Source: Schmidtea polychroa (lineage: Eukaryota). From it: a stretch of 64,000 bases of DNA. Numbering within the stretch: the stretch's first letter is position 1; each line of letters opens with the position of its first letter. A program made the position numbers and the translations under genes. This document shows positions 9,279 to 64,000 of the stretch, in pieces. The notes beneath the pieces are model-generated. The model worked only from the letters and a program-made list of their open reading frames with translations. It was not told the origin of the DNA and made no database searches. Location: NCBI GenBank assembly GCA_044892525.1, contig CM097885.1, positions 5,458,001 to 5,522,000 of the forward strand, given 5' to 3'.

Positions 9279-9907
9279 TTACATGTATATAGTATGATAT
9301 TCATTAATCAGTGTTGAACAAGCTTGACACTTGCGAACAATCTTCTCGTTACACTTAGAACAAACAATTACGTAACCGCACGGTAAATACAAAACCGAAA
9401 CTCGATTTTCTTTACAAATTGAACAGGTTAAATACCTTTTCTTAACATCGCTCAGTTTTTTCGTTAGCTTATTTTCAATCAAATCGGCTTTCGCTATCCA
9501 ATCATAAATCAATCTACTATATCCAGGTTTCAACCTTAAAAACATACAACTCCAAAAGTATTCATTCAGCGAATCATTGTTTACTGCTATTTTTTCTAAG
9601 TACATTAAATAACAAGATAACTTTAAAATGGATTTCTCATAATTAAATAAATCAAACAAATATTCAATAGAGGAATGTTTGAAAATCTTTAAAATATTTA
9701 TGAGTTGCTTATCACTGTAATCATCATGATTATTTATAAAATCTTCAACTGTGTTGTTAAAAAATTTCATTGAAATTTCGGAATCGGTCCGACTTAATTT
9801 TTCCTTATTTCTTCCTTGCTATAAATGACATATATAAAAAAATATTGACAAAATAATAAAGTTACCAAATGTGTTACACATTCATCGGTTTTATTTGTAT
9901 AAATCAT
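9279..9907 (-). CDS. C-terminal RING (IAP/MDM2-type) E3 ligase-like protein, 2 exons
   Basis: CSICKENRVSVLYLPCGYVIVCSKC...CQAC; in-frame upstream exon MIYTNKTDECVTHL joined via GT-AG intron 9819-9865; TATA and CCAAT upstream. Confidence 0.75.
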
Positions 9908-20390: not shown

Positions 20391-20965
20391 TTGACATAGT
20401 ATTGTTTATCCTTACCGACCTTTTTAGTTTTCAATATTTTTTGAATTCTAAATACTTTTGGGGGAGGAATGACTTGTAATTCCTGCTCATAAAATTTCCC
20501 TTGTACAATATTATTATCATTGTCTTTGATGACATACATTACAGGATTCTGTTTAGTATTTATTTTTGAAATTACAAAGACTTCATCACTCCAATTTGTA
20601 TCAAAATTTTTAATAAATGGTGATGCACTAATTTTACTAATTCTAACATGGTCATCGACTTTATATTTAGGTTTTGCAATTTTTACAGGTTTTTTAGAAT
20701 AGATCGTTTTTGATGTAATATCAACCGGTCTCAATCCATTCAGTCCTCGATGTGATGAATGATTATAACTTGTTATTATTTTCGGTAAAGCATTTACCCA
20801 TTTTTTATTACCTTGATGCACGAACAATTTCTTTAATCGATCTCTCAATGTTCGATTAAATCTTTCAACATGGGCAGCTTTGTATTGAGAATGTACCGTG
20901 TAGTGATTTATTTTCAGTTTATGGAGGATTTGCTTAACTTTGCTATTGTAGAATTCTTTACCTAA

Positions 20966-21042
<77 letters not shown>

Positions 21043-22769: not shown

Positions 22770-23207
22770 ATGTTAGCAAATATAAATTATCGAGGAAATT
22801 TTGATGTATCGAATATGAGGTTCCCACCAGGGAAACCCCAGCAAATTATCGATAGAAATGGGAAATATCCGATAATATTTTTCAAGACTGGTAAATGCAG
22901 AATCATGGGATGTAAGAAACCTTTGGATATTAATAAATTACAATATCGAATAAATAATATTAAAATCCAATCAATTACCGTTACTATGGATATGGGACAT
23001 AGTATCAATCTATATAACATGTCGAAAAAATGTGATTGTATGTTTGAACCGGAATTGTTTCCGGCACTAAGACTATTAAAATATAACCCTATATGTGTCA
23101 ACGTGTTTGCTAGTGGAAAGGTTGTCATGTTGGGGTTGAGAAATTTGGAGTATAGAGAATTTGTTGACAATGTTCGAAATGAGATAATTTCATTGGTCGA
23201 TTTCTAA
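22770..23207 (+). CDS. Divergent TATA-binding-protein-like protein
   Basis: Two TBP half-repeats: IIFFKTGKCRIMG and FEPELFPAL...VNVFASGKVVMLG. Confidence 0.85.
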   Translation: MLANINYRGNFDVSNMRFPPGKPQQIIDRNGKYPIIFFKTGKCRIMGCKKPLDINKLQYRINNIKIQSITVTMDMGHSINLYNMSKKCDCMFEPELFPALRLLKYNPICVNVFASGKVVMLGLRNLEYREFVDNVRNEIISLVDF

Positions 23208-24029: not shown

Positions 24030-24066
24030 TGATTGGTTGATAGGCATGAGTCAAAGGTATAAAAAC
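24030..24066 (+). promoter_or_regulatory. Inverted CCAAT box plus TATA promoter
   Basis: CTGATTGGTT...TATAAAAA ~35 bp before the ATG; same design upstream of several accessory genes. Confidence 0.65.
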
Positions 24067-24509: not shown

Positions 24510-24636
24510 TGTTATATTTAATAAATGTATTAGTCAGATTTGTTTTTTCTCTTTATTAATTGCAACATAAATGCAAATGACATGCAAATTTAACAAAGAA
24601 AATCTATAAACAAACTTATAATTTAGTTTTAAAGTG

Positions 24637-25022
24637 ATGAAAATGACTGTAGAAAAAGGTTAACATGATTAATTAATTACCGAATTATTTATTATTTAGA
24701 ATTTTTAATCAACTTTTTGTTGGAAAAGTTAGCAGAAATATCTGGTGTGAAAATGGAGGATATATTATCTATTACAAATGCCTTAAATATCGGCTGGTTA
24801 GTTGAGAGTCAAGATACAGGATTTGGTGATGAGGAAGAAACTCAAGAAATTGATGAGGAAGAAACTCAAGAGGAAATCTATGAACCTATAGAGGAACCTA
24901 TAGAGGAACCTATAGAGGAACCTAAAGATGAATCTAAAGATAATATTACGAATGATTGTATTGATCATGTCGTTGAAAATATAATGAAATGTGGAGATGA
25001 CGACTGCGAATGTGTTAATTAA
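24637..25022 (+). CDS. Small acidic accessory protein, 2 exons
   Basis: Intron 24659-24699 joins MKMTVEK to the ORF in frame; copy in P4. Confidence 0.7.
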
Positions 25023-25105
25023 TAAATCTTAGTTAATTAGTGTTTGTAAATTTATTTAAAATGTTATTTAAAAATTTATTTAAAAATCAAACACAAATAA
25101 CTATA

Positions 25106-25626
25106 TTAATTTTTATTTAAAAATCTGGTTAAAATATACAAAATAGCAACACCTGTTGCAAGTTTTACATAGTTTTTAAATTTTCTTTTCTGATCGTCTA
25201 TTTCTTTTGCATTTCTGGCGAGTTGATTGAGTACTCCCCATCCGCCATTGGCTTCAATCCATGGTTGAAACTTTGACTTGATTATCTAGAAAATAAATAT
25301 TAATAAAATATAAATTATAAAAGTATTACTTCTTGAGACCACTGATAATAGTGCTCTGAGTCCCATAGACTTCTTTGGATTATTATTTTCATATAAGCGA
25401 ACCCTACTAGTATTCGGGTCCACTTCATCTCCTCGTCGCATAAGCAATTAAATATTCTATTAAAATAGAATTTCTTTGTTTCGAGGGAATCGGAATTGAG
25501 GACGTCCTCATAATCAATGTGATTACCCTCTATAATCTTTTCGGTCCGATCGACAAGGAAAATTAGGCTTTCCATAATATTCTTGTTGATGAGTTCTCTT
25601 AACATATTTTCCATTAAATTAGACAT
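25106..25626 (-). CDS. Bcl-2-like protein, 158 aa, 2 exons
   Basis: BH1-like MKWTRILVGFAY; after intron 25286-25329 BH2 WIEANGGW; C-terminal hydrophobic tail LATGVAILYILTRFL. Confidence 0.85.
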
Positions 25627-26195
25627 TTTTACAATATTTTAATATATGATGTTTTATTTATACTAATACTGTATGATTTTGATTGGTTGATAGACTATAA
25701 ATGTAAAAGAAAGGTTTTGATTTGATACACCATGAAAACTCTATTCATATTGCTAATTATTATAACGAGTGTGTGCTCACACAATACAACAATAACGGTG
25801 GAGTCTTTTAATAAATCAATATGTGTTTGTCCGAATACAGCCAAGTTGATGGATATTTTATATATTCTCGATAAACCAAAATGGTCAAAGCATCCAGGAA
25901 AAAGAATATCTCAAAGATTGGAGAATTTAGAAAACAGTTATGAACTAACATTTGAATATATACAAAATATAAAAATTAAATTGATTGATCATATTGAGGT
26001 TTTCAATAACTCTATTACTGAAAATAAAAAGAATATGAAGATTATTGATAAGAAGCATGATTATTTGTTAAAAAAGATTGAATTATTATTAAGAGAAATT
26101 CAAACAATCAAAGGATCAATAGAATATCTGAAAATCAATTCAACGTTACCAATTTCTAACAATATTGCTGCGAATAGTAGTATATCAATATTTAG

Positions 26196-27378
<1,183 letters not shown>

Positions 27379-27847
27379 AACAGCAATGGATAAAACCTTC
27401 TTACAAAGATAGCAGTTCCTACAAGATTTGAATTGTCGTTCCTCAGCAAAAGTCATAGGTCCTAACCGTTTTTTCCCTTCAAGCTCATAATAAGGTAGGA
27501 CAATTGTGACAGCAATTTCCTCTACTTTTTTAAGAAATTGAGGTATACAATCAAGACCATAAAACTCGTAATACGATTTTCTATTGTTAAGATTATTTAT
27601 TAATAAAAGACCTGCTGAAATAGGTAAATGTATTTGATGATGTTTAACATCTTTAGGTAAAACCGATTCAAAATCGGCATAAATAACAAAGGGTGGAGTG
27701 ATTCTCTTTGAATGATTTTGAAACTCTAAATATTTATTTTCGGGTAAAGTGTAAAGGGTTGTACCCGTTTGATTTTTACTGCATAGGGCCACATGTTTAG
27801 TGAAAGCATTGTCTAATCGAAAACCGTTAAGACAATGTGGGCACCAT
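27379..27847 (-). pseudogene. polB: P1 pPolB middle fragment between the two insertions
   Basis: WCPHCLNGF...YADFES...CYLCKKVLSIAV; joins in frame to both neighbouring fragments through the TSDs. Confidence 0.95.
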
Positions 27848-28559
27848 AGTAGTATATAATAAGGACTCCAGGACACTTTCAAGGTCATGGAATATCAAGA
27901 TCAAATATAGGTCAATTGAATCATTTATTATTATTACTATTTTTTTTTTTTTAAATTAACATTTTATTTAATTACTTCTTTTTAATTTTTTCTTTATAAT
28001 TTTATTAATTAATTATTTTATGATGTTATATTTTTAATTACTTACTTTAGTTAATTTTTAATTTATTACATTTAATTAATTAATTTGTTTATTAATATTT
28101 TATTTTAATTACCTTCGCTATTTAATTATTATTATTATTAGTTTTTTTTTAATTTTAATATTATTTAATTACTTCTATTTATTTATTTTATTTTTTTTTC
28201 TCTTTAATTTTATTAATTAATTATTTTATGATGTTTTATTTTTAATTACTTACTTTAGTTAATTTTTAATTTATTACATTTAATTAATTAATTTGTTTTT
28301 TAATATTTTGTTTTAATTACTAACGTTATTTAATTATTATTATTATTATTATTTATTTTATTTATTTATTTATTATTTTTTAATTTTACATTTACATTAT
28401 ATTCTAACAAGAACGTAAATTATAACAATAATATTTCTTACTTGAAACTAATTATCTAAAATAATTGGACAAATGAATTATTAAATGATAAAACATATTT
28501 TAATTAACGAAGACAAATTATTCACAATATATATTTTATTATTCACATAAATTTAATTG

Positions 28560-31422
28560 TTAAAGTGCTTGTTTCGATTTGCATTCATTTCTAGACATAG
28601 CAGTTGCAATATGCATTTGGCGAATCTTATAGTGACCGTAGGCATAACTTTCATTACAATTGTACCAATACCTTTTATCGTCCAAACATTGGAGAGCTCG
28701 TTTGTCTGTCATGAAAGTATACAACTGATGATTGAAACTTCCTATTCTTTTTTGTGGGATGCTCACTGTTCCACCATCAGTATACACTTTTTTATAGGCT
28801 TCATGTGTAATATTAGAATTTGTAAGGCTTATTCCTTTGGCTTTTAGAGTGTTTTTATCGCCTTGGAGTGAGTAGCACTTGGGTCGAAGAAACACCCATT
28901 CTTTATATTGATTTCCTTTATTCTCATCCTTAACTTTCCCGATTACAGAACAGATTTTATCAGAGAACAACGGATCGGTCACTGGATAATTTGAAGTATC
29001 TAGGAGCCCATCTTCAATCATTTTTGGATATAGTTGTAAGCGTAAATCTACATTTTTACACTCCAAAAAGAAGGAATCTGTGTCACCAGCTACGATATTA
29101 ATTTGACAATTGAATTCTTCTCTATAACTCTGTAGTTCTTTATATTGAAATTGGTACATGCGAAGTTTGGATAAATCAAGTACGGTTTGTCCAATATACA
29201 TTGGTCTATCTAAACACACAATTTCCTTATTGAGTATAACAGCAATGAGATTATCCGCAATCTTGATGCTACGACGAAACATAGGATGACTACAATAAGT
29301 TATCAATCTTTTGCTTTTGTTGCATAATCTCAAATTTATACGTTTCTTCAAGTTTTCCACAGTTTTACCGTATAAACTGTTGTTCTTTAACTTATAATAA
29401 TCTCGCTGAAACGAATCTGTACTAGCTGCTCTCATTTTGGTATTGTAATCAATATATCCTTTGAAAATAGCCACTTGTTTGAATTCTACAGCACGATTAA
29501 CTTTTGTGCCTTTTGCGCCGTAACTCAACCACTCTGTCAAAACTCTACCATTAACTACATAGTTTTTCTTAGGCTCATGAGTTAACAACAGCTTTTCAAT
29601 TTTACTACCAGGCGGATAACAAAGCTCAGGAGCTATAGGTAAATCATCTAGTTTATCTTGTATACTATCAGGAATGACTATGTCAACCTCTAGAACATAT
29701 CCACGATCTCCATCAAACTCATCCCCATTTGCACATCTTTCAACAATACCATTCATTTCAGTCTGATCTTCTAACCATCTAAATTCCCCAACAGGAAGTT
29801 TTTGCGACAGCGCCCATCCATATAAATTATTAACATCTAAGTATGACATTTGTGTTGATTCATCAGCTTCAACATGATGTTTGTTGATAAATGTCATTCC
29901 ACCACGAATACCAGCTTCAAATAAACGGTAAAGCTCTGGATCTTGAATAAGTTCTACCGGTTCAGGTAACTGTTTAATAGCTGATGCCCAACTTAATCCG
30001 GATATGGAAACAAACGATAGAGCCTCAAGTCCATCTTCGTCAAATGTTTTTTCTCTGAAAGCTTCAAAAACATCGGCCAACAGAAAAACATCCAGCTTGA
30101 GATATACTAGCATGTAATCTAGCAGTGTGTCACAGTTGTATTGTCGCCAGATTCGATTTGCATGTATATAATCTTCGTCACTAACTCCCTCCCAAATCGG
30201 TGGTAATTCTGTTATTGACTGTAAAACATCCATTGATGTAGCCATATCATAAGGAAAAATGGTTTTACAAGTCATCATCTGCGATTCGAAAACATCTGAG
30301 GTCAGTGGAAGACATGGTAAATCTTTTGATAAATTTGCCAAGCTGCTATTTAAAAATTGTAAAGAATCAATGAATCTAATTCTTCTGCCTTTCGATGTCG
30401 CTGTAAGTGTGAGAAACTTTTCTGTTGATTGAGGAATAACATTTAAATTCCAATCAGGGAATTTTCCAATTGCATATTTTAATATATGATGAATGTCATA
30501 TCCACGAAGATTATGAAATACAACAGGTAAAGACGGATTGATTCTTCTAGCCAAGTTGCAAACTTGACATGCTGCTCCGAGATATTGACCAGTAAAATGA
30601 TCATGATCTCGAACAGGTATATTGATAATCTTTTTACAAAGGTAGCAATGAGTTTGATTCGTAAATTCTTCCTGCTGTTCCCAAGTGAGTTCCATCATTT
30701 CCTTCGATCCATTAATTTTATACCACGGATAAACTATGTCTGTAGCTATATCATCCAATGCTTGTATAAACTGAATGATACAGTTTTTCCCAACAAATGT
30801 TTCATTTCGAATCGGACAACCTTGATGAAGAAGCACAAATTCAGATGCAATCGGCTCATGTTTTTGGAAGTGCTTGTCATCTAGAGGTAATATTGATTCA
30901 AAGTCCGCGTAGACAACAAACTGCTGTTTTATAGTTTTACTCCAGTCTTTAAATTCGATATATTTATTCTCTGGCATTGAGTATAGAGTCGTCCGCTCCA
31001 CATTCTTCCTACAAAGACCTATATGTCTTTCAAAAGCAGGACGTTTTTGAAACCCATGAAGACATGTATGACACCAATGTGATTGGATTCTGAATCCTTC
31101 TACTCTATCTCTGTAATTCAGCAGTCGATCGAGATTAGTTACAGCCAAAAAATGATAATTTAATTCTAAAATTTAGTTAATATTTTTAATGATTAAAAGA
31201 AATATTACCTTCTTCAATCAATAGGAGATATATCTGAGATCCCGTCGAAGTACTTCTATATACCAAGTCAACGAACGGATTCTTGAAAATATCATTAGTT
31301 TTTTGTTTAATTGGATCTTTATTATATTTGAGAACATTGATCGCTAGATTTGGATTCATTGCTTCAAATTGGCAAATGTTAACCAACTTCATTGGAAACC
31401 AATCTGATTTCCATTTTAACTC

Positions 31423-31472
<50 letters not shown>

Positions 31473-32519
31473 TAGAATGATATAAATATATATTACCACT
31501 TAAATTATATTTCATTACTCTTTCTCTGTGATGTTTTATGTCATCATAATGTAATACGGCCAGTATGCTATATAAAAAGCAGAATTGATCATTATTTTGA
31601 ACATTAGCTAAAGCCTGACAGTTTTTCAGGTAATTTGGCGTTTTAATATAACTTGAACCTAAGTAAATATCTTGATTTATATATATAATAATGTAAATAA
31701 ACTTACCAGATACATGTATTATGTCTGATAATTTAGTTAAAATCATAGTAACTTCTAATATTTTATGAATTCTCCACCCACTACTTTGTTGAGTGTATTT
31801 CTCCAACTTTTCTTTTAATTTTTCAATTCCATCATTAATAAATGAAGATGACATTGTAATTGCTTTATTCGACAAACACCATTTTTTAATTTCACCATCC
31901 TCTTTGATAAACTCTGCACAAAGTCCAAATTGGATTTTTACTGTACCCATTCGTTGAATATGATCTTCTATTTCTTTGATGAGACAATCTGGAACAACAA
32001 TGTCAGGAGAATTAATTGCAGATACATCGCTTGTCAATTCAACACGAGAACCATTTAAGTCAGACTCCCGACGTGGACACAATTGTATGTTAGAGTCTCC
32101 ATTTCCGTAAAATATTGACTTTCGTTTTGTGGTGCCAGAGTTTTGTCTAACTATATTTATAATTAATATTAAACAACTTAAATAACATAACTTGTAACAT
32201 ATTCTTTAATCTGCTTAGGATCGTATGATGTATTCATTTTCGATTGTACTATAAAAAATTAATAATTGTTAATAGTAGAAAGAGTATTACTTTTAGTGAT
32301 CATCCTGCTCTTCGTTTCTTCGAATCTTCTAAGATGGTGTCCGTGTTGTCGTACAAACATTAACCACCTACCTGGTGATATAATGAGACATTCCGGACAT
32401 ATGTAACCCGATAAGGTAGAGTCATTTATCTTGAAATATGATGATGTAACTGATTTACAGTTCTCCACATCTTCATGACTTTCGGCAATACAAAATTTAT
32501 ATAAACTGCATCCGTTCAC
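28560..32519 (-). CDS. polB: P3 divergent protein-primed DNA polymerase B with at least 5 introns
   Basis: GT-AG introns 32249-32290, 32151-32191, 31659-31706, 31422-31496, 31166-31208 join ORFs 32259-32519, 31186-32082 and 28560-31148 into one frame matching the other pPolBs (SGSSYIKTP, LLLIEEELNYHFLAV). Confidence 0.88.
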
Positions 32520-35138: not shown

Positions 35139-35639
35139 TTAAACAATAAAATAATGTAAAATTAACAAAGGTAAACTAAATATTGAGGTACTACTATTCG
35201 CAGCAATATTGTTAGAAATTGGTAACGTTGAATTGATTTTCAGATATTCTATTGATCCTTTGATTGTTTGAATTTCTCTTAATAATAATTCAATCTTTTT
35301 TAACAAATAATCATGCTTCTTATCAATAATTTTCATATTCTTTTTATTTTCAGCAATAGAGTTATTGAAAACCTCAATATGATCAATCAATTTAATTTTT
35401 ATATTTTGTATATATTCAAATGTTAGTTCATAACTGTTTTCTAAATTCTCCAATCTTTGAGATATTCTTTTTCCTGGATGCTTTGACCATTTTGGTTTAT
35501 CGAGAATATATGAAATATCCATCAAATTGGCTGTATTTGGACAAACACATATTGATTTATTAAAAGACTCCACTGTTATTGTTGTATTGTGTGAGCACAC
35601 ACTCGTTATAATAATTAGCAATATGAATATAGCTTTCAT
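35139..35639 (-). CDS. P4 copy of the 166-aa secreted/GPI coiled-coil protein
   Basis: 6 aa differences from 25732-26232. Confidence 0.75.
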   Translation of the reverse strand: MKAIFILLIIITSVCSHNTTITVESFNKSICVCPNTANLMDISYILDKPKWSKHPGKRISQRLENLENSYELTFEYIQNIKIKLIDHIEVFNNSIAENKKNMKIIDKKHDYLLKKIELLLREIQTIKGSIEYLKINSTLPISNNIAANSSTSIFSLPLLILHYFIV

Positions 35640-35744: not shown

Positions 35745-36259
35745 ATGTCTCATTTTATGGAAAATCTTTTAAGAGAACTCGTCAACAAGAATATTATGGA
35801 AAGTCTAAGTTTCCTGGTCGATCGGACCGAAAAGATTATAGAAGGTAATCACATTGATTATGAGGACGTGCTCAATTCCGATTCCCTCGAAACGAAGAAA
35901 TTCTATTTTAATAGGATTTTTAACTGTCTATGCGACGAGGAGATGAAGTGGACCCGAATATTAGTAGGGTTCGCTTATATGAAGATCATAAAGGAAAGAA
36001 GTCTATGGGACTCTGAACATTATTATCAGTGGTCTCAAGAAGTAATACTTTTATAATCTATATTTTATTAATATTTATTTTCTAGATAATCAAGTCAAAG
36101 TTTCAGCCATGGATTGAAGCCAATGGCGGATGGGGCGTGCTGAATCGACTCGCCAGAAATGCAAAGGAATTAGATCAACAGAAAATCAAATTTAAAAACT
36201 ATTTAAAACTTGCAACAGGTGTTGCTATTTTGTATGTTTTATGTCGGTTTTTTAAATAA
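35745..36259 (+). CDS. P4 Bcl-2-like protein, 2 exons
   Basis: Intron 36042-36085; KWTRILVGF, WIEANGGW, hydrophobic tail. Confidence 0.85.
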
Positions 36260-37724
36260 AAATTAATATAGTTATTTTGCTTGATTTTTAAATAAAATTT
36301 TAAATAAATTTGTTGAGGTCTGTAAATTAAAAAGAAATTTAGGTTAATAAGTGAAGAGAAAAGACAAATAAAAGCGGGATCATGTACAGAATTGATAGTA
36401 AAGGAAAATGTGATGGAAGCAGTATTAGAAAATGCCAAAAGCAATTACGAAAGGCGAGAATCCGGAAATCCGAGAAAAATCAATAAAGGGAAAAATCATC
36501 GAAATCGAATGGGAAAAACGGGACAGGTATAGATTAGCTAATGGTCAACAAGATGATGGTTAGGGATTTATCAGAAAAGGGTTAGGAAGGGTCGAAAAAC
36601 ATTCAAACGTATGGAAACAGAAAACGTTAATTAATTAATTAATTGGCTAATGGAAAACCCGAGCTAATGGGAAACCCGAGCCAATGGAGAACCCGAGAGA
36701 TAAAGGAAACCCGAGCTGGGTAAACAAGAAGAAAGGCAAACAAAAGGAAGATTTGGGCCCATTAGCTTGACACAAAGATTAATGGGAAAAGAGTAAGGAG
36801 AAGATAGCGCGCGTAGGAAGACCGGTAGGGCCATTAATTATCTGGATTCGTTGCACCATTATGGGTGACAGCCGAAGCAAACACGTAGGAGAAAATGTCA
36901 AACGAAAGATTGGCTCGGCAATAACCATTTGTCATCCTGATTTCGAGGAGTATATAAGCAAAGGGAAAATCAGAGAAAATCGGCATTTTGCCTCAGCTAG
37001 GGTTCGAAGAATTAGACTGTAGGAAAAGTGGTAAACGAATTAGGGAAGTAGGGAAAAGAAGAAATAGAATTAAGAATACGGAAAGGAGAAAAGAGATCAA
37101 ACGAAACCGAAACCGAGGAAAACGAGAGTCAACAGAACTAAAGGATCAAAAGGTGAATATTGTTTGTTTGCAAAGCATCAACGCCGAGCAGAGAATCGTG
37201 TAAAACTTTGATTGTTAATTGTAGAGTGATAATAAATTGTGAACCTGTTGTTTCAATATACGTTGGGTCGTTCATTGTTTTAATTTAAAGAACACCAGGA
37301 GTCAGAGAGAACCGACTTGAAATAATCCAAAACCCAACATATATTCTGGTGAGCCCGACGTGATCGCAAGTCGGCGGAAAATTATTGAAAGTTAGTGAAA
37401 AAATTAATTGTTGAAAAAAAAATAGTACCGACGTGATCGAAAGTCGGCGGAAGGTTACTAAAGTTAGTGAAAAAGTTAATTATTGGAAAAGTACTAAAGA
37501 CGTGATTGGAAGTCGGAGGAAAATTATCTAAAGTAGTGGAAAATATTTTTTTGGAAAATAATACCGTCGTGATAGAAAGTCGGCAGAAAATTATTGCAAA
37601 AATATTTGGGAAAAGAGTACAGACGTGATCTCAGTCGGTGGAGAATAATTGGAAGTAGTTAAAAAAATGTATTGGAGAATAGTATTGACGACATAAATAT
37701 TGAAGGTCATTTTGGAAGATTGAA

Positions 37725-39188
37725 TTGATTAAAGAATTTGATTTAGGAAAAGTAAATTTAAATTATTATTTACCGTTTGAATTTTTGCCCAAAGTGAATC
37801 GATATAACCTCAGAAGTCAGAAACAAACCCAAATGGCTAGTTGCCAAAAATTACCAGTCAACCAATATGGAGGAGACCCTGTTGAGTTCGCTGATTTTAT
37901 GGACGATTACTATATGTATGCGTCAGCATATGGATGGTCAGAAGAGATAATGGTGCAAAGATTTCCGTTATATTTGAAAGGAACAGCCAAAGAAGTCTGG
38001 AAGCAAATAAATAAGAAAATATTTGAAAATGACTGGAATAAATTAAAAGATACGTTGGAAAGTAAATTTAGATGCCCTGATATTAAAAGGATGACGAAGA
38101 AAACATTTTTTCAAAGAATACAAGCATCAGATGAATCCATTAGTGAATATGGGTACACTTTGATTTCATTGGCGAGAAAGGCTTTCTCAATAAACTCTGT
38201 TAATGATGACATTAATGTTCATAATATTATTATCGATATATTTCTGAAGGGTATCAACAATGATTTGAAATCGATGGCTGCTATGTTACAATATGATGAT
38301 GTGTTTGATTTAATAAAGAAACTTTCAAGTGTTGAAAGAATGATGGATGATTTTAACAAGCTCAAAGATTATAAGGTCCAATGTTTCAAACAAAATTTTA
38401 GAAGTAGTGATTTCCCGTATCATCCGAATGTTTGTTATGGACACTCAAATATTTCTAATGATTTGAAGACTTTTGATATTGAAATTAATTCTTCCTCGTG
38501 TAATTATGAATCTAAAGATCACAGGAGTAATTTAATAGTTAACAAATATAATCCTGTTAGTGAATCGAAAGGTAGTGATATCTTTTCGGAAAATGATGAT
38601 CAAAAAAATTTGAATATTAAAGATAAGTGTCAGCTGTATAGTTGCAGTGTAAAAGATCAAGTTACTTACTTAAAGGGTTGTGTGAGAGAAGGCGAATGTA
38701 TATTTGATGATCATACTCAATTACTTTCAGAAATATCAACGGTCGAAACATTCAATGCGAATTCATCGATAGTTCAGACTAATGAAATATCTTATGAAAA
38801 AGTGTTGGTTTTGGAAAACATATCTCATTTGAATCTACCAAATTTCAAAAATAATTTGATGCAAAATACAAACAATAAAGATGAATACAATATGCTCAAA
38901 AAATGTGAACTAAATAATGATTCTATATTTATAAATTTGGGTATAATCTATGTCATTCTGAAATTGATATGGATCATTTATAAAAAAATAATACAACATT
39001 ATGCATTTACTGACTCAAGCATGAGGAATTATGCCTGTCTTCCATCATCTTTATATGTCACCGTAATATATTTAAATTGTGGAAATAAAATTGGATCCAA
39101 CGGGGAAATAAAAAAGAAAAAAAAACATTCAACATCTAACTTGGACAATATTCATCTTACCCACAAACATTCATTCAAACATACATAA
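37725..39188 (+). CDS. Retrotransposon Gag-like protein
   Basis: YGGDPVEF...YGW...YLKGTAKEVW...W..LK..L...F, QASDESISEY; no RT or integrase downstream. Confidence 0.8.
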   Translation: MIKEFDLGKVNLNYYLPFEFLPKVNRYNLRSQKQTQMASCQKLPVNQYGGDPVEFADFMDDYYMYASAYGWSEEIMVQRFPLYLKGTAKEVWKQINKKIFENDWNKLKDTLESKFRCPDIKRMTKKTFFQRIQASDESISEYGYTLISLARKAFSINSVNDDINVHNIIIDIFLKGINNDLKSMAAMLQYDDVFDLIKKLSSVERMMDDFNKLKDYKVQCFKQNFRSSDFPYHPNVCYGHSNISNDLKTFDIEINSSSCNYESKDHRSNLIVNKYNPVSESKGSDIFSENDDQKNLNIKDKCQLYSCSVKDQVTYLKGCVREGECIFDDHTQLLSEISTVETFNANSSIVQTNEISYEKVLVLENISHLNLPNFKNNLMQNTNNKDEYNMLKKCELNNDSIFINLGIIYVILKLIWIIYKKIIQHYAFTDSSMRNYACLPSSLYVTVIYLNCGNKIGSNGEIKKKKKHSTSNLDNIHLTHKHSFKHT

Positions 39189-39489
39189 AATAAAATAACG
39201 CATGTCTCTTCAAAAAAAAAAGGAAAGCCACTTGGGGATTGCTGTTGGGCGGTTCGGGATCTATTGGTCGCTGGTGGGGCCATCTGTGAATTGAGTTTTA
39301 TCTATAAACAAGAAGTATTAAAACACACGTTTTTGTTAGTCTCACTTTGTGTCGAATTTGAAGTGGAGGCAAGAGAATTCCAATTGATTGCGACATTTGA
39401 GGACGGTGGATTCTGAACCATTTGCTTAGGCGGGGTTCGATTTGGGCGGGAGGCAGTGAATGAGAAATAATATAGATAAAATTGATTAT

Positions 39490-40130
39490 TTTCATTACAG
39501 AATTTATCAATACAAAATTAAAATAAAGAGAATAGAAAAGTTGTCCTTTGGCATTTTTAAGATAAAAATATTCAAGTTTAGATAAATAATTTGGTACATG
39601 AACAGCAATACTCTTATCTACATCTTCATAGCAAAGTAGTCCACATTTATAATCTGATAAGATGCGTGCATCATTGACTACCTCGATGTTGGTCGATTCA
39701 GAAACGAAACCCAAATAAACATCATCAAATGGGAAATATTTCACAAACGGAATAGCGTGACTGATTTTGTTAAAGCTTCTCATTAACAATTATTGTTGAA
39801 CCGAAAACGTACAGTGGATAAACATCATTGAAATTTTGATCTTTCGACACATACCATCTGCTCCAATTCGATCTGTGAGGTGTGGCATTGGGATTCCGAT
39901 GCCCGGATATTGCTGATCTGTCAGAGAGGTCCAATGACAAATGATAAGGGTTTTTCAAATTGATAAAAACATCATCATCTATGAAGATAAATCTTTGCTG
40001 GCTTGTTGAGTTCAGACACAAATGAAGCCTCATCCGATGTATTTCCGCCATTAACTTTAATGTATTATTCAAATAAGTATCTTTGAAATTACTTGAGTCG
40101 TGTCGTTGCTATTTTCCAGCTCTAATTTAA
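39490..40130 (-). pseudogene. Beta-1,3-galactosyltransferase (GT31) fragment inside the LTR element
   Basis: FIDDDVFIN, P.R...RWYVS...YPLY..G, FPFDDVYLG; frameshifted. Confidence 0.8.
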
Positions 40131-40720
40131 TAATGAAAATACTGTACATTGAAATTCCCAATTTAATTAATTGTATCTTACTTTTATATTGTTTTTATTC
40201 ATTTGGCTGTTAACTAAAATTTTGACTTAGTCGAATTTTTCTATAATTAGGTCATAGAACTATTATCGACTAAAAAATAATTGAATTGTGTGATCATTTG
40301 ATCTCGATGGAAATGTTCTTTATTTATTCAGACAAGCTTTTAAATAGGTTTAGTCAAACAAATTAGCAACTATGGCAACAATAGAGAATTCTTATTCCAG
40401 TCCAAAAGAGATACAGAAATAAATACGACAGAGCTTTGGTGTTAGTTGTTTTGCTGGGCTGTAATCTCTAAATAAATATTTCTCAATCGATTGGCGAAGA
40501 AAAGTAACAGCATGCGTTAATGAAATGTGTCTGACTCATGGAATTTGATTCGTCAATTTTTAGTTTAAATTTTCTGCCCACAAGAATTTCTAGCACACAA
40601 TTAAATCTGTTTATCTCCATTTCTAGATTATTCATTGCCAATTGTTGCTATTTTTGGAATTCTTGGACATTTAATTAGCCAGTCTGATAAATCTGTTTAT
40701 CTCCATTTCCAAATTATTCG

Positions 40721-41324
40721 TTGCCAATTATTGCTATTTTTGGAATTCTTGGACATGTTATCATGATTTTGGTACATCTATTTGAACATAAAATGTCAAG
40801 ATTTTCCAGTTATTGTGTTACAATCTCTAGTACTCATGTTGTGATTTTAATAATGAATTCTCTGATGGACGATGTATACGGCGTCTTCCTCCAATGCAGT
40901 TTTATTCGATTCAGTTACGAAAATTCGTCATTTATCTTTGCTTTTTTGTATCATAACGATTCTGTTGTTCAATTCACCTCATCTGGAATTTTAGTCAAAC
41001 ACTGCGTAGAAATGTACATTGAAAAACAATACAATTGGTAAAGTTTCAGTTCTCACAAAGTATCATTCGCCTAAGTTGTGGAGAGCGAGAATTCAAAGAG
41101 CCAAATTATTGCCGGGAGACCTACAGAAAAATAATCTTGAAATGAATCGAATTTGCGGACATTTGGCTTTATATACGGTCTTCCTATTGTTCAGGTTTCC
41201 AATGGTTGTTGCGATGTGGATGCGTCATTACAACGGTTGTAATTTTTCTGCCAAAGTTTTATCTAGATTATTTTTATCAGTTAAAGTTGTTTCATATTCT
41301 TTAGATTTCTTATTATATGTTTAA
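40721..41324 (+). pseudogene. Decayed rhodopsin-family GPCR-like fragment inside the LTR element
   Basis: TM1-like IIAIFGILGHVIMILV, TM6-like VFLLFRFP, TM7-like SYSLDFLLY; frameshifted. Confidence 0.55.
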
Positions 41325-42746
41325 CTAATTTTCGTTGGAGATTTATTAAATATCTCGCTGCACCACTTTTACACTGTGAGACCATAAGTAAATCGTCTTG
41401 TTTATTTAGATTCGAAATTAATGAAGCATGACAGCCGTCAAAAGGTTTGAATGTAGAAAAAAAAATTATAATTTCAGTGATATCTACCCTACCCCAATCA
41501 GCATCCACGCCTTCAAACAGATATGTTCGTCAGTGCCCCGTCAAAAAAAAACCGTTTCATAGGCTTCCGATGTCAAAGTCACCACAGAAGATGAAACAAA
41601 AACTGAGTCCAGACAATAATTGTGAAGGGATAATCACATCAAAATGTGGATTTCGAGGACGAAAATTCTTTTTTAAGAGGGGAGATATGTTGAGGTCTGT
41701 AAATTAAAAAGAAATTTAGGTTAATAAGTGAAGAGAAAAGACAAATAAAAGCGGGATCATGCACAGAATTGATAGTAAAGGAAAATGTGATGGAAGCAGT
41801 ATTAGAAAATGCCAAAAGCAATTACGAAAGGCGAGAATCCGGAAATCCGAGAAAAATCAATAAAGGGAAAAATCATCGAAATCGAATGGGAAAAACGGGA
41901 CAGGTATAGATTAGCTAATGGTCAACAAGATGATGGTTAGGGATTTATCAGAAAAGGGTTAGGAAGGGTCGAAAAACATTCAAACGTATGGAAACAGAAA
42001 ACGTTAATTAATTAATTAATTGGCTAATGGAAAACCCGAGCTAATGGGAAACCCGAGCCAATGGAGAACCCGAGAGATAAAGGAAACCCGAGCTGGGTAA
42101 ACAAGAAGAAAGGCAAACAAAAGGAAGATTTGGGCCCATTAGCTTGACACAAAGATTAATGGGAAAAGAGTAAGGAGAAGATAGCGCGCGTAGGAAGACC
42201 GGTAGGGCCATTAATTATCTGGATTCGTTGGACCATTATGGGTGACAGCCAAAGCAAACACGTAGGAGAAAATGTCAAACGAAAGATTGGCTCGGCAATA
42301 ACCATTTGTCATCCTGATTTCGAGGAGTATATAAGCAAAGGGAAAATCAGAGAAAATCGGCATTTTGCCTCAGCTAGGGTTCGAAGAATTAGACTGTAGG
42401 AAAAGTGGTAAACGAATTAGGGAAGTAGGGAAAAGAAGAAATAGAATTAAGAATACGGAAAGGAGAAAAGAGATCAAACCAAACCGAAACCGAGGAAAAC
42501 GAGAGTCAACAGAACTAAAGGATCAAAAGGTGAATATTGTTTGTTTGCAAAGCATCAACGCCGAGCAGAGAATCGTGTAAAACTTTGATTGTTAATTGTA
42601 GAGTGATAATAAATTGTGAACCTGTTGTTTCAATATACGTTGGGTCGTTCATTGTTTTAATTTAAAGAACACCAGGAGTCAGAGAGAACCGACTTGAAAT
42701 AATCCAAAACCCAACAAATTTACAAACACTAATTAACTAAGATTTA

Positions 42747-58703: not shown

Positions 58704-60323
58704 ATGCCTCCGAAATTTCTTACAAAATCCGAAAGGAAAACATTGGAAGAAGAACAAGATCAACAATTGATCAGTTGCATCAAATTGTCCCATAATTTTG
58801 TCAACAAAACCGAAGATCAAAGCGCACCAATGAAATCATTTGCACTTGAAAATTTGAACATGACGATCCTTGAAAAGGTTTTGCTCAAAGATTCAACTAT
58901 CACAATTGAACATGGGAAAAGATATGGTCTTATTGGTAGCAATGGATCCGGTAAATCTATCCTATTCAAAGCCATTCAAATGGGCTTATTCGACTTTCCA
59001 AAGGATTACACAATCGGAATTGTCGAAGAAGAATGTCTTGCTGATGGAACTAAAGTTGTCGAATGCTTTGTTGGTAAAGATGAAGTTGAAGATTTCATGG
59101 TGAGATTTGCTGACGTGAAAAGCAGAGCTGTCAACAAGAAGAACAAAGATGTTGAAGTACCGAAACTCGTGAAAATATTAGATGGAATGGGATTTACTGC
59201 TGAAAAGATGAATGACCACGTTGGTAATTTATCTGGTGGTTGGAGAATGAAGATTAGTTTGGCAACTGTTCTGATGGCTGAACCAGATCTTTTACTTTTA
59301 GATGAACCAACTAACATGTTGGACGATAGAACAATCAAATGGTTGTCGGGATTTTTGAAAGAATGGAAGACAAATTTATTTTTCATTTCTCATGACGGAG
59401 GCTTTTTATCTAACGTTGCAACGGATTTGTTATCGATTGAAAATAAAACTGTCGTACATTATGCTTGCAAATACTACGAATGGTTGAGGAATCAAGAACT
59501 CGACAGAGATAAAGTTAGAAATCAAATCCAAGAACAAAAGGCACAGAAAGCTGAATTGATGGAATACATAAAAAAGTTCGAAAAGACAAAAAAGAAAGAA
59601 GTCGCTGCTAAAAGACAACAAATAAAAAAGATGCCCGTCATTGATGAAAGCATTCTAGAACCGAGAGAAATCTGGAGATTTCCCGCTTGCTTGAAAATCA
59701 AGTGCGCTACAATTGAAACGAATGAAATGGGATTCAGTTTTGGTCCCGCTAAAGAAATATTTAGAAACATCACATTACGCGTTCAACCCGATTCTAAAAT
59801 CTGCATCCTCGGAGACAACGGTTGCGGTAAAACTACTCTATTGAAGATCTTCATGAAAATCCTCAAACCCACCAATGGAAACATGTTCTTAAATGATCGA
59901 ACAAATGTCGGCTACTTCAGCCAGCATTACGTCGACCATTTGGAACTGGATAAATCAGCAATTGAAATTATGCAGATCCGAGTTCCCAACTGCAAACTCG
60001 AAACTTATCAAAGTCATTTGTTGAAATTCGGAATCACAAGTGAAGATTGGAACATTCCCGTCAGATGTTTATCATCGGGACAAAAGTCAAGAGTAGCTTT
60101 CTCCACTATTTACATGCAGAAGCCTAACTTTTTGATTTTCGATGAACCGACAAGTCATTTGGATAAAGATGGAACTGAAGCTTTAGAAGATGCTTTGAGG
60201 AAATTCAAAGGAGGAGTTATTGTTGTTACTCACGATGGAAGGATGATGTCAAATGTTTGCAAGGATTTGTGGTACATCCAGAACAGAACTGTCAGCGTTG
60301 TTGAGGACGGCTGTATGATATAA
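58704..60323 (+). CDS. ABC-F family ATPase (ABCF3/GCN20-like), intronless
   Basis: Two NBDs: GSNGSGKS, LSGGWRM, LLDEPTN; GDNGCGKT, LSSGQK, FDEPT; no TM segments. Confidence 0.9.
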   Translation: MPPKFLTKSERKTLEEEQDQQLISCIKLSHNFVNKTEDQSAPMKSFALENLNMTILEKVLLKDSTITIEHGKRYGLIGSNGSGKSILFKAIQMGLFDFPKDYTIGIVEEECLADGTKVVECFVGKDEVEDFMVRFADVKSRAVNKKNKDVEVPKLVKILDGMGFTAEKMNDHVGNLSGGWRMKISLATVLMAEPDLLLLDEPTNMLDDRTIKWLSGFLKEWKTNLFFISHDGGFLSNVATDLLSIENKTVVHYACKYYEWLRNQELDRDKVRNQIQEQKAQKAELMEYIKKFEKTKKKEVAAKRQQIKKMPVIDESILEPREIWRFPACLKIKCATIETNEMGFSFGPAKEIFRNITLRVQPDSKICILGDNGCGKTTLLKIFMKILKPTNGNMFLNDRTNVGYFSQHYVDHLELDKSAIEIMQIRVPNCKLETYQSHLLKFGITSEDWNIPVRCLSSGQKSRVAFSTIYMQKPNFLIFDEPTSHLDKDGTEALEDALRKFKGGVIVVTHDGRMMSNVCKDLWYIQNRTVSVVEDGCMI

Positions 60324-63300
60324 ATATATATTTCGAAAAATTATTTTATTATTTCCCCTGTTTACCTTGTAAACAATTATATATTATATCTTTTTATATT
60401 ATTTTTGATTTTGGTCAAGTATGAAATGTCAAGTATGAAGTTCTACAAAAGATCCGGGAGTCCCTTTGGTGTTCCATATTAAGAATAATCGAAAACACAT
60501 CTGACTTAAATGGCACTTAAAAATCAATAAAATTTATTTTAAAAAAGACGCCAAAAATTTTGACCTTGAAAAAAAATGAAGGGGGTAGCTCGATAACTCA
60601 TATGGCGGGAATTTAAAATTTTAAATCATATTGAGTTTCGAACGTGATTTTAACCGTCTTTTTCAAAAGTTACGAAAATGGTTTCTTTAAGAAAAATGTA
60701 CTTCACTCAAAGTTCTAACAATAAAGTAAAATTTACAGAGTTTTGCATGATAAGGTTCTGGTACATTTAAGGTACAAAATATTTGTTTTTTTGTATTCTT
60801 GACCATTTTCCAATAAATATTTGAACAAGTCCTGGTCAGTAAAGTTGTAGGGCTTGTAATTCTCCATATTTTACAAAAAGAAAATTTTTAAATATCTCAA
60901 ATAATCTTTTCCTAGTCAAGTTTCTCTCTTTGAAAAATTTAAAATTTTCGCCAGAAAAATCTTGAAGAAATACAAAAATTTTGTGATCAGCAAAGATGTA
61001 GGTGACGTCACCTTCTATATTTTAGTAGAAATAATATTTTGAAAATCTCAAACTCCCGCGCTACAGTGAGATAAAACAAAAAAGTAAAAATTCACTTTTA
61101 AATCAATATGTGCACTTTTTAATCAATAATTGCACATTTAAATCAATACTTGAATTTCTAATTTGAAAATTTTGCACTTAAAAATCAATAAATGCACTTT
61201 AAAATCAATAATCGCGAATTGACCTTGAAAAAAATGTGCGGGTAAAGTAAGGGGCTCTGTTGCTAACTAGTGTGCGGTAATTAATATGGTGGCGTAAGGG
61301 GCTAAGATCTACCTACTTATGGGGGTGTCGAAATAGGAAATATTTACAAAAATTAAAATGAAATAAAAATGAGTAATTTAATGTAAAACTCGAGTTAGTG
61401 AAGAAAACTAGAGATAAAATAGATTCAGACTGTATTAAATAATTAGGCAAAACTACTATAGAAATAAATGAATTGCCCGAAAGCCTGAAAACTTCGAATT
61501 GAAAACAAATTAAGTTGGTGTAGGGAAGCATGGAGAGAAAGACGCCAAAAATGAAATATTGAATTTGGTTGGTAAAGAATGTTATGTGGAAGTTGAAAGA
61601 TTCCTAAAGATTTAATTAGAAATTTTGTTCAATTTAAAAAATATTTTTGAGTGTAAAATTTTTTTTTTTTTTTGAGTGTAAAATTTATTGAATAAAATTT
61701 TTGAGTGTAAAATTTATTGAATAAAATTTATGGAATTATCTAGTGATTTGCAAACAGATATTAATGTTATAACGGTGAGAATCCTAATAAATTTAATTAC
61801 AGGGCTAGCATAAAAAGAATAGGCAAGTCAACAGATCTGTCAGGCGGTCGAAGAAACATTTAACAAATTCAGATGGCAATTAGATACATTTTAAAACTTA
61901 GTGATAACCAAATTAATTTGAGTCTTTGTGTAATAGAAATGAGAGATCGTCATTGGAAAACTTATCCCAATGCCTAGACTGAAATTGTTATTGAAAATTG
62001 TGTAGAAATAAAAATGTCAATGAAATTGGAATTTTGGTATTAAATTGTGTAAACAAACAAGAATGTAACTGAGGTGATTTCGAATACATATTATTAGGTT
62101 AGGTTTAAGTAAGGACATCGAGGAGTCCGATATTGATACCGACTTATATAAATACCAAACATTTATAGGAATTCAATTACATATTCAACCTTTCCAAAGT
62201 AGCCACCCACATCAATGGCTACAAAGAAATAAATAGGAATGGATTGAAATGACAATGAAGGATAAATATCGGATGCAATTAGACTTCGAGGTTGTTGTAG
62301 TGGAATTGAACAGGTAATTATAGAATACCTACACCTGGGCTCATAGTTATGAATAAAAGACAACAAAAGTCACATAATCTTAAGTTCGTAAGTATGTATA
62401 TGACTAACACAGAATGTTTCTGATCTGACAAAGATCTATTAGTTTCTCAAATAACAACTCAACTCGTTTTTCATATAAACATTATTTGAAAATTATAAAT
62501 ACAGTATATGAATTAGAAATTTAGACAATATAAAATATGTATCCCAAAAAGTTGTCGCGATAAAAGCTAAAGCACAGATATCATTTATACATATCGTCCT
62601 CAGATATTTATAAGACGGCGAATGCAGGATCCTAATTTATCAACAGCAGGCTCAATGGTGAAAGGAAAAAGATTAGGTATGCCCGAAGTTTAACGCGATC
62701 GATTACTATCCAGAAATGATAGTAACGTTTACCAAAATGACAACCTCTAATATTCTAATTATTCGACACACGCAATGTAGTTTCTCCAGAAAACTGTTTC
62801 AATTATTACCCAATTTAGCTTTGATCCCAAGCCCTACTCAAAACTGTTACAATTGATTTAATGGATTACTCGATAATCAATTTATGTTTTGGTAAAACGG
62901 CTTTTTGCAATTTAAAATAAATATATAAATGGGTAAAGTAACGCGTAAAACGCTAATTACCTCCTGATTATGAAACCATTCTTCTAGCAGCAAATTTCGA
63001 ACAAGTAAAAGTAATTCTAATTTTCACGAAAATTTCCTCGTTTAAATATGTTTTCTAGATTGTTGGCTGCCTGCTGTCGTCTATGAAAATCGATATTGCC
63101 AATCTGTTAATATTTATTCTGTGCAAAATTACTTTCTCGTTCTTCGCTAATATACGCTTGACCTTCTGTCTCAAATTATGATTTCTTTTGTACTAAATGC
63201 TAAATTGACTGACTCACCTAAATTTTAAATAATTGTTTTTTATTTATATTATTTAAACTGATTTTATTTATATTAATATTATTTCTATTTAAATTACTAT

Positions 63301-63495
63301 TTATATATTCTATTTATTTATAATTGTTTTCTTATTCTTATTACTTCTATTTATATTTTTATCTATTTAGATTGGCTATTTTAAATGACCAATATCCTTC
63401 CAATGACACTACCTAAGCAAGCCCCAAGCGAGCTCAGACCCAACCCTAAAAATAATAACAATTAAAAGGCCGTAATTATTTATCTAAACATTTAT

Positions 63496-63802
63496 TTATA
63501 TCATACAGCCGTCCTCGACAACGCTGACAGTTCTGTTCTGGATGTACCACAAATCCTTGCAAACATTTGACATCATCCTTCCATCGTGAGTAACAACAAT
63601 AACTCCTCCTTTGAATTTCCTCAAAGCATCTTCTAAAGCTTCAGTTCCATCTTTATCCAAATGACTTGTCGGTTCATCGAAAATCAAAAAGTTAGGCTTC
63701 TGCATGTAAATAGTGGAGAAAGCTACTCTTGACTTTTGTCCCGATGATAAACATCTGACCGGAATGTTCCAATCTTCACTTGTGATTCCGAATTTCAACA
63801 AA
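63496..63802 (-). pseudogene. Inverted partial duplicate of the ABCF 3' end
   Basis: Translation matches the last 101 codons of 58704-60323; joined to an inverted copy of ~62005-62202. Confidence 0.9.
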
Positions 63803-64000
63803 CTACTTTGGAAAGGTTGAATATGTAATTGAATTCCTATAAATGTTTGGTATTTATATAAGTCGGTATCAATATCGGACTCCTCGATGTCCTTACTTAA
63901 ACCTAACCTAATAATATGTATTCGAAATAACCTCAGTTACATTCTTGTTTGTTTACACAATTTAATACCAAAATTCCAATTTCATTGACATTTTTATTTC

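Follow-up and report, generated by a model that had tools for sequence, protein, structure and literature searches.

The locus at positions 25106 to 25626 of a 64,000-nucleotide stretch of Schmidtea polychroa DNA (the window) raises the question of whether Polintons, large self-synthesizing transposons, carry a spliced Bcl-2 homolog and, if so, what such a protein could do for its carrier.

Two copies of a two-exon gene

A first-pass annotation of the window had proposed that a second exon, missed by the open reading frame (ORF) track, supplies a BH2 motif (WIEANGGW) and a hydrophobic tail, and that the gene is intact in Polinton P2 as well as in a deleted relative, P4. Both features of exon 2 are present in both copies of the Bcl-2-like gene, A (25106-25626, minus strand) and B (35745-36259, plus strand), each of which is open through a 99-codon exon 1, a 44-nt intron and exon 2 (Table 1); tblastn across the 64-kb window returned only these two. 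The ORF track shows half of the gene because the unspliced frame of copy A runs into a stop after 103 codons. Exon 1 can be joined in frame with WIEANGGW from a single donor to any of three acceptors (introns of 44, 53 and 59 nt), yielding products of 158, 155 or 153 residues, and the 44-nt intron is the form matched by a contig from sequencing run X1. The copies end in different residues (RFLNKN in A, RFFK in B) because their lengths differ by 1 nt close to the 3' end.

Table 1. Positions of the Bcl-2-like gene copies, their motifs and their surroundings in the window
Feature	Position	Strand	Description
Polinton P2	8254-27378		19,125 bp, AGTAG..CTACT ends, perfect 6-bp AACAGC target duplication
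Copy A exon 2	25106-25285	minus	59 codons and stop; WIEANGGW and hydrophobic tail
Hydrophobic C-terminal tail	25118-25168	minus	Putative membrane anchor, basic flanks
BH2 core WIEANGGW	25238-25261	minus	Aligned with WIQENGGW of Bcl-xL
Copy A intron	25286-25329	minus	44 nt, GTAATA...TTCTAG, GT-AG, phase 0, AT-rich
Copy A exon 1	25330-25626	minus	99 codons, ATG at 25626, BH1 region
BH1 core KWTR	25414-25425	minus	Aligned with NWGR of Bcl2-A1
Head-to-head spacer	25627-25731		105 bp, Bcl-2 gene to 166-codon ORF
Deleted Polinton P4	34090-49455		AGTAG..CTACT ends, no matching target duplication
Copy B exon 1	35745-36041	plus	
Copy B intron	36042-36085	plus	44 nt, 1 difference from copy A intron
Copy B exon 2	36086-36259	plus	57 codons and stop
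LTR element	36311-42716	plus	51 nt past copy B stop, between Bcl-2 gene and P4 acidic ORF

Over 151 codons the copies differ by 23 synonymous and 16 nonsynonymous changes, so the "several synonymous differences" noted earlier were real but understated. The dN/dS comparison that the first-pass annotation had suggested, a single pairwise one that excludes the last exon 2 codons near the 1-nt length difference, gives a dS of 0.33, a dN of 0.045 and a ratio of 0.14 (Fisher p 6e-9), as expected of purifying selection. Taken separately, exon 1 has a ratio of 0.09 (p 3e-8) and the first 52 codons of exon 2 one of 0.27 (p 0.04); third positions carry 8 of the 14 exon 2 differences, and both other frames of this exon contain stops. 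Judged by these substitution patterns, both exons are under purifying selection. Copy A coding variants, among 40 of 143 listed, comprise 10 synonymous and 16 nonsynonymous changes and no stops (26 of 28 classed), a biased pick that leaves out 2 stop-codon variants and is given no weight.

Between the copies, the Bcl-2 gene has diverged at synonymous sites 4-8 times as much as the ORFs on either side (dS 0.33 vs 0.04 and 0.08; p 1e-5 and 0.002), and the intron and the upstream spacer are nearly unchanged: 1 of 44 intron nucleotides differs between the copies (p 3e-4 against the gene dS), as do 2 positions in the 105-nt spacer. The high dS of the gene may reflect recombination between older gene variants or, alternatively, constraint on the short intron and the promoter.

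Four of the 14 sequencing runs listed, none of them on record as RNA, were compared with the locus, X1 being guessed to be RNA and X6 probably DNA. An X1 contig on exon 1 carries a loose end of 25 letters before 25325, of which 20 agree with exon 2 at 25256-25280, a score that none of 2000 shuffles reached; this segment, along with its equivalent in copy B, is the best place for the loose end in the window. The five intervening letters agree with the first bases of exon 2, so that the contig connects 25330 with 25285, which is the predicted junction. It encodes KSKFTPWI (vs KSKFQPWI) and represents a diverged copy of the gene; two further X1 contigs end precisely at the acceptor, 25285. Among 15 of the 21 joints listed, none spans 25285-25330, a point against splicing; X6 was checked in these 15 and in part of the loose ends (20 of 482), and the contigs of runs X3 and X5 leave the junction uncovered. 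The gene is likely spliced, as the first-pass annotation had it, with a contig found at the predicted junction, but that contig is a single one, from a diverged copy and from a run that is only guessed to be RNA, and its source may have been a DNA copy lacking the intron.

A probable, divergent member of the Bcl-2 family

The Pfam family PF00452 is the top or sole match of the copy A exons: exon 1 aligns with profile positions 10-66 (E 0.063, 14.3 bits) and exon 2 with positions 86-100 (E 0.34, 11.9 bits), so that the matched parts are adjacent and in order. Copy B exon 2 aligns with the same positions 86-100 (E 0.26), and copy B exon 1, searched alone against Pfam, gave nothing at E<=1. For all seven database relatives PF00452 is again the top match (E 0.0008-0.02). 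With the exons scored apart, no sequence reaches the family cut-off of 31.4 bits, the best being exon 1 of a relative at 20.4 bits; the proposed assignment to the Bcl-2 family therefore holds in that PF00452 is the best family for each exon, but at scores that all lie under the cut-off.

Searches of the PDB point the same way. Exon 2 matches 46 sequences at E<=10 (best E 0.074), every one of them Bcl-xL or BCL-2, and 8 of the 9 matched by exon 1 belong to the Bcl-2 family (7 by name; best Bcl2-A1, E 0.11), among them 3qbr, which we take to be a schistosome Bcl-2. The best matches are pro-survival proteins, A1/Bfl-1 for exon 1 and Bcl-xL for exon 2. In profile searches with exon 1 the Bcl-2 family match gets no better than E 0.026; falcipain competes at E 0.12, and Bak fragments are among the weak matches (E 0.69-1.5). 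In the ESM Atlas the top clusters (0.91-0.93) carry PF00452 and the best 10 of 10 belong to the same family or clan, a score that is weak because recognition (1982) lies below the 2300 mark of that resource; exon 2 had no usable match there. No single score is decisive; the strong evidence is that two independent exons match, in the right order, the same family out of 24,736.

Structure prediction covered half-domains. AlphaFold models exon 1 alone as all-helical (pLDDT 66, pTM 0.51), and a relative, P0002, modeled as a half-domain with a 9-row alignment and likewise all-helical, reached a pLDDT of 58 and a pTM of 0.37. Foldseek searches with the low-confidence half-domain models of exon 1 gave no match at E<=0.001 in the pdb or viral sets, and Bcl-2 was absent among the best 50 rows against VIA; in the pdb search, schistosome BCL-2 stood at rank 7 (E 2.9). 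Half-domain models of this kind weigh neither for nor against a Bcl-2 fold.

Homolog searches returned three short ENA clusters; the relatives, called as 103-112-residue ORFs, are 64-88% identical and have the same layout and motifs. Neither these searches nor a search of longer proteins with exon 2 (0 of 24 longer candidates matched at E<=10) found a donor host gene. A pattern search of IMG/VR gave 4 matches, none confirmed, and the one candidate of 255 that passed in JGI metagenomes (L001) was rejected as a bacterial gene in which SEHYYQW occurs by chance.

Within exon 1, the BH1 region reads KWTRILVGFA against NWGRIVTIFA of Bcl2-A1. The atypical KWTR flagged by the first-pass annotation proved to be a stable trait: all 9 sequences, the most distant at 64% identity, have [K/Q]WTR as BH1, with the Trp and Arg invariant and the NWGR glycine replaced by Thr in every one. 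This glycine is common, not strictly defining, among Bcl-2 family proteins, and BH motifs can be missing altogether from viral members (PMC7022251). BH2 follows BH1 (PWIEANGGW vs PWIQENGGW of Bcl-xL). Residues 1-28, where BH4 and BH3 would fall, are predicted to be helical and were unmatched in Pfam, PDB and profile searches. At the C terminus, both copies have a 17-residue hydrophobic stretch with basic flanks (mean Kyte-Doolittle hydropathy 1.6-1.8 over 15-17 residues; 1.62 over 17) that we infer to be a membrane anchor.

The carrier elements and their neighbors

P2 has the terminal inverted repeats, the AGT..ACT-type ends, the 6-bp target duplication and the size of a Polinton; Polintons/Mavericks span 13-25 kb and have characteristic end motifs (PMC8097293). 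It contains a PolB-like ORF, an integrase with a chromodomain (Pfam rve, E 1e-4), an A32-like ATPase (Pox_A32, E 4e-7), putative capsid ORFs, a mini TBP, a RING ORF and an accessory block that includes Bcl-2. The 406- and 355-codon ORFs, which have no Pfam or PDB match and only a weak, unnamed PHROG match, are candidate capsid genes by their position and size. P4 retains PolB (phrog_1907 DNA polymerase, E 1e-20; the P2 protein is 74% identical to it) and the accessory block (166-codon ORF, Bcl-2, acidic ORF and 136-codon ORF), and had no match to the integrase, ATPase, putative capsid, TBP or RING ORFs of P2. The accessory blocks of P2 and P4 are 92-95% alike, against only ~77% for their PolB DNA, so the block likely moved between lineages.

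The 105-bp spacer holds a TATA-like box, with TATAAATA ~30 nt upstream of the Bcl-2 start, as well as a box of 13 nt that includes CCAAT, and by its sequence is likely a promoter common to the Bcl-2 gene and the 166-codon ORF. The 13-nt box occurs at 24031, upstream of the 136-codon ORF, and at 25681, upstream of the 166-codon ORF and, read on the opposite strand, of Bcl-2. The 166-codon ORF (25732-26232, plus; 35139-35639, minus) lies beside Bcl-2 in both elements and encodes hydrophobic ends and a coiled-coil-like middle; Pfam and PHROG searches assigned it to no named family. Next to copy B, the LTR element, with 1032-bp LTRs that are 99.5% alike and an AATT target duplication, is by these sequence features a young insertion.

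Several other features of the window deserve mention. The P2 TBP-like protein (22770-23207, plus; 145 residues, PF00352 E 1e-15) is encoded head to head with the ATPase. The P2 RING ORF (9279-9770, minus; 163 residues) has a C-terminal zf-C3HC4_3 match (E 7e-9) and no BIR domain in the Pfam search; its RING is of the type found in IAP proteins, and it could possibly be a second cell-death regulator. The P2 integrase gene has a GT..AG intron at about 20960-21040 (minus) that is nearly all ATT microsatellite and would yield poly-Ile if read through in frame. An outer element with long inverted ends (4299-55784) encloses P2, a PolB region (27391-32076) and P4; since the PolB stretch at 8307-6268 resumes at 27846-27391 across P2, P2 inserted into another PolB gene. 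Run X6 placed 19,354 contig pieces, with many variants, on 1.75 kb (24550-26300), which suggests that the copies form a very large and varied family; contig depths give neither copy number nor expression. Outside the elements, a 539-codon single ORF (58704-60323, plus) adjoins an inverted-repeat pair (60009-63810); it has two ABC-type ATPase motifs by eye and is presumably ABC-F-like.

Candidate roles and known systems

We posit that the locus is a conserved two-exon Polinton accessory gene, likely spliced, whose product is likely a divergent, tail-anchored Bcl-2-family protein of 158 residues that curbs host cell death, a reading that we regard as fairly probable. Host RNA polymerase II would transcribe the gene from the TATA/CCAAT spacer common to the neighboring gene, and the host spliceosome would remove the 44-nt intron; the tail would insert into the mitochondrial outer membrane or the ER, and the groove, with the BH1 Arg kept and the Gly replaced by Thr, would bind some host pro-death partners. 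The benefit would be a cell that survives while the element copies and integrates its linear DNA, with or without particle exit. An anti-apoptotic function is plausible, with the reservation that the BH1 glycine important for Bax binding in Bcl-xL is replaced.

The altered BH1 invites a different reading, in which the spliced Bcl-2 fold serves mainly a job other than blocking Bax and Bak, such as BH3-only binding, autophagy control or immune signaling, as do some poxvirus Bcl-2-fold proteins. The fixation of Thr across all nine sequences speaks for it, as do the missing BH3 and BH4 matches in residues 1-28 and the known viral Bcl-2 folds with non-groove roles (PMC7022251). Both the Gly and the Arg in NWGR are important to partner binding, and in ORFV125, which has SPGR instead, the affinity for Puma is about 250-fold weaker (PMC9027176), an analogy only, because ORFV125 retains the glycine. 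Bcl-xL with a BH1 Gly-to-Ala change loses Beclin 1 binding (PMC2807451) and, as G138A, is impaired in Bax binding and keeps BAD binding (bioRxiv 10.64898/2026.06.23.733989), which makes a shifted partner range a serious rival. The retained BH1 Trp and Arg, BH2 and membrane tail are, however, a set typical of apoptosis regulators, and overall we consider a mainly different job unlikely. A pro-death factor, Bax/Bak-like or dominant-negative, that acts late to release particles or kill cells appears improbable. Pro-death and anti-death members cannot be told apart by sequence alone, the weak profile matches include Bak fragments, and adintoviruses carry other membrane-active cargo (PMC8502044), but the best matches of both exons are pro-survival, P4 retains the gene without ATPase and putative capsid genes, and the viral Bcl-2 entries in an excerpted table of PMC7022251 are all pro-survival.

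Two further alternatives concern the gene rather than the fold. Were the intron unused, exon 1 alone would encode a 103-residue protein and the exon 2 match would be a remnant or chance; the lengths at which the database relatives are called, the weaker selection on exon 2 and the single junction contig would all fit. Yet those relatives are gene-caller ORFs on short contigs that diverge from one another immediately past the donor site, the BH2 frame is the only open one of exon 2 in either copy, and the X1 junction falls on the predicted bases, so we give this reading very little credence. Least probable, and largely refuted, is a recently captured host gene riding as a neutral passenger: the host-type intron and promoter would suit it, but the dN/dS between element copies, the layout and motifs kept in relatives at 64-88% identity, and a fixed accessory block common to elements whose PolB proteins are only ~74% identical all count against it.

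A bolder extension of the cell-death reading, which we hold to be doubtful, is cell-level drive: a Thr-retuned, spliced Bcl-2 would spare the stem or germ cells that copy the element and let them outlast neighboring cells, the gene module would be swapped among old lineages, and capsid-less derivatives would keep it. In planarians, Polintons are targeted by piRNAs and lose part of their silencing in differentiation (PMC8532177). If cell-level drive were true, the gene would be a manageable starting point for functional tests of Polinton accessory genes; in any case, the locus offers a small protein for testing Polinton manipulation of host cell death and illustrates that ORF-only annotation misses half of such genes. 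The gene had also been read as consistent with a real infection cycle, an argument that does not discriminate: because P4 keeps it without integrase, ATPase and putative capsid, and because a BCL2-like motif is also present in the Burro LTR retrotransposons of planarians (PMC6431247), its presence says little on the matter, and an extracellular infection cycle of Polintons is not settled by it.

Compared with Bcl-2 family proteins at large, the predicted product shares the order of a BH1-like motif and BH2, a C-terminal hydrophobic tail and a similar size; it differs in scoring below the Pfam cut-off, in having [K/Q]WTR for NWGR and in its unmatched BH3 and BH4, and the stretch between its matched parts is ~5 residues shorter than in the PF00452 profile. 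Adenovirus E1B-19K, which blocks Bax and Bak (PMC11209288), is likewise a small Bcl-2-like protein from a DNA virus lineage with protein-primed PolB, and an E1B-19K/Bcl-2 cluster appears among the ESM Atlas rows at 0.86, a value that, being below 0.9, is a lead only; the Pfam E1B-19K family matched neither the exons of either copy nor the database relatives. Unlike E1B-19K and other viral mimics, the gene described here has a predicted spliceosomal intron within its coding region and resides in a germline-integrated element. Burro is, like P2, a transposable element with a Bcl-2-like module, but its module is a domain of a 4,873-residue retroelement polyprotein (PMC6431247), in contrast to the stand-alone, probably spliced gene of the Polintons.

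The closest precedent was missed by the first-pass annotation, which rightly invoked viral Bcl-2 mimics as context and overlooked that Bcl2 homologs, together with IAP homologs, have already been observed in adintoviruses (Starrett et al. 2021; PMC8502044, section 3.2). There, too, a Bcl-2-like accessory gene sits in an element with PolB, a retrovirus-like integrase and a packaging ATPase; the difference is that the accessible main text devotes one sentence to it, assigns no function and nowhere contains the string "splic". Supplementary Fig. S2 bears three "Bcl2" labels, and no planarian name was found in the accessible part of the supplement. Elsewhere, the main text of PMC11071296 lacks "bcl" and makes a general remark on anti-apoptotic homologs, and in the accessible portions of PMC8097293 and PMC9341512 "anti-apoptotic" occurs only within a reference; a search of the open-access literature found no functional study or spliced case of a Polinton, adintovirus or Maverick Bcl-2. 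Bcl-2 cargo in Polintons and adintoviruses is thus already known, in the literature searched through a sentence and map labels, and to this the present locus contributes the structure of a gene, signs of selection on each exon, an initial hint that the gene is spliced and an unusual BH1 that is fixed.
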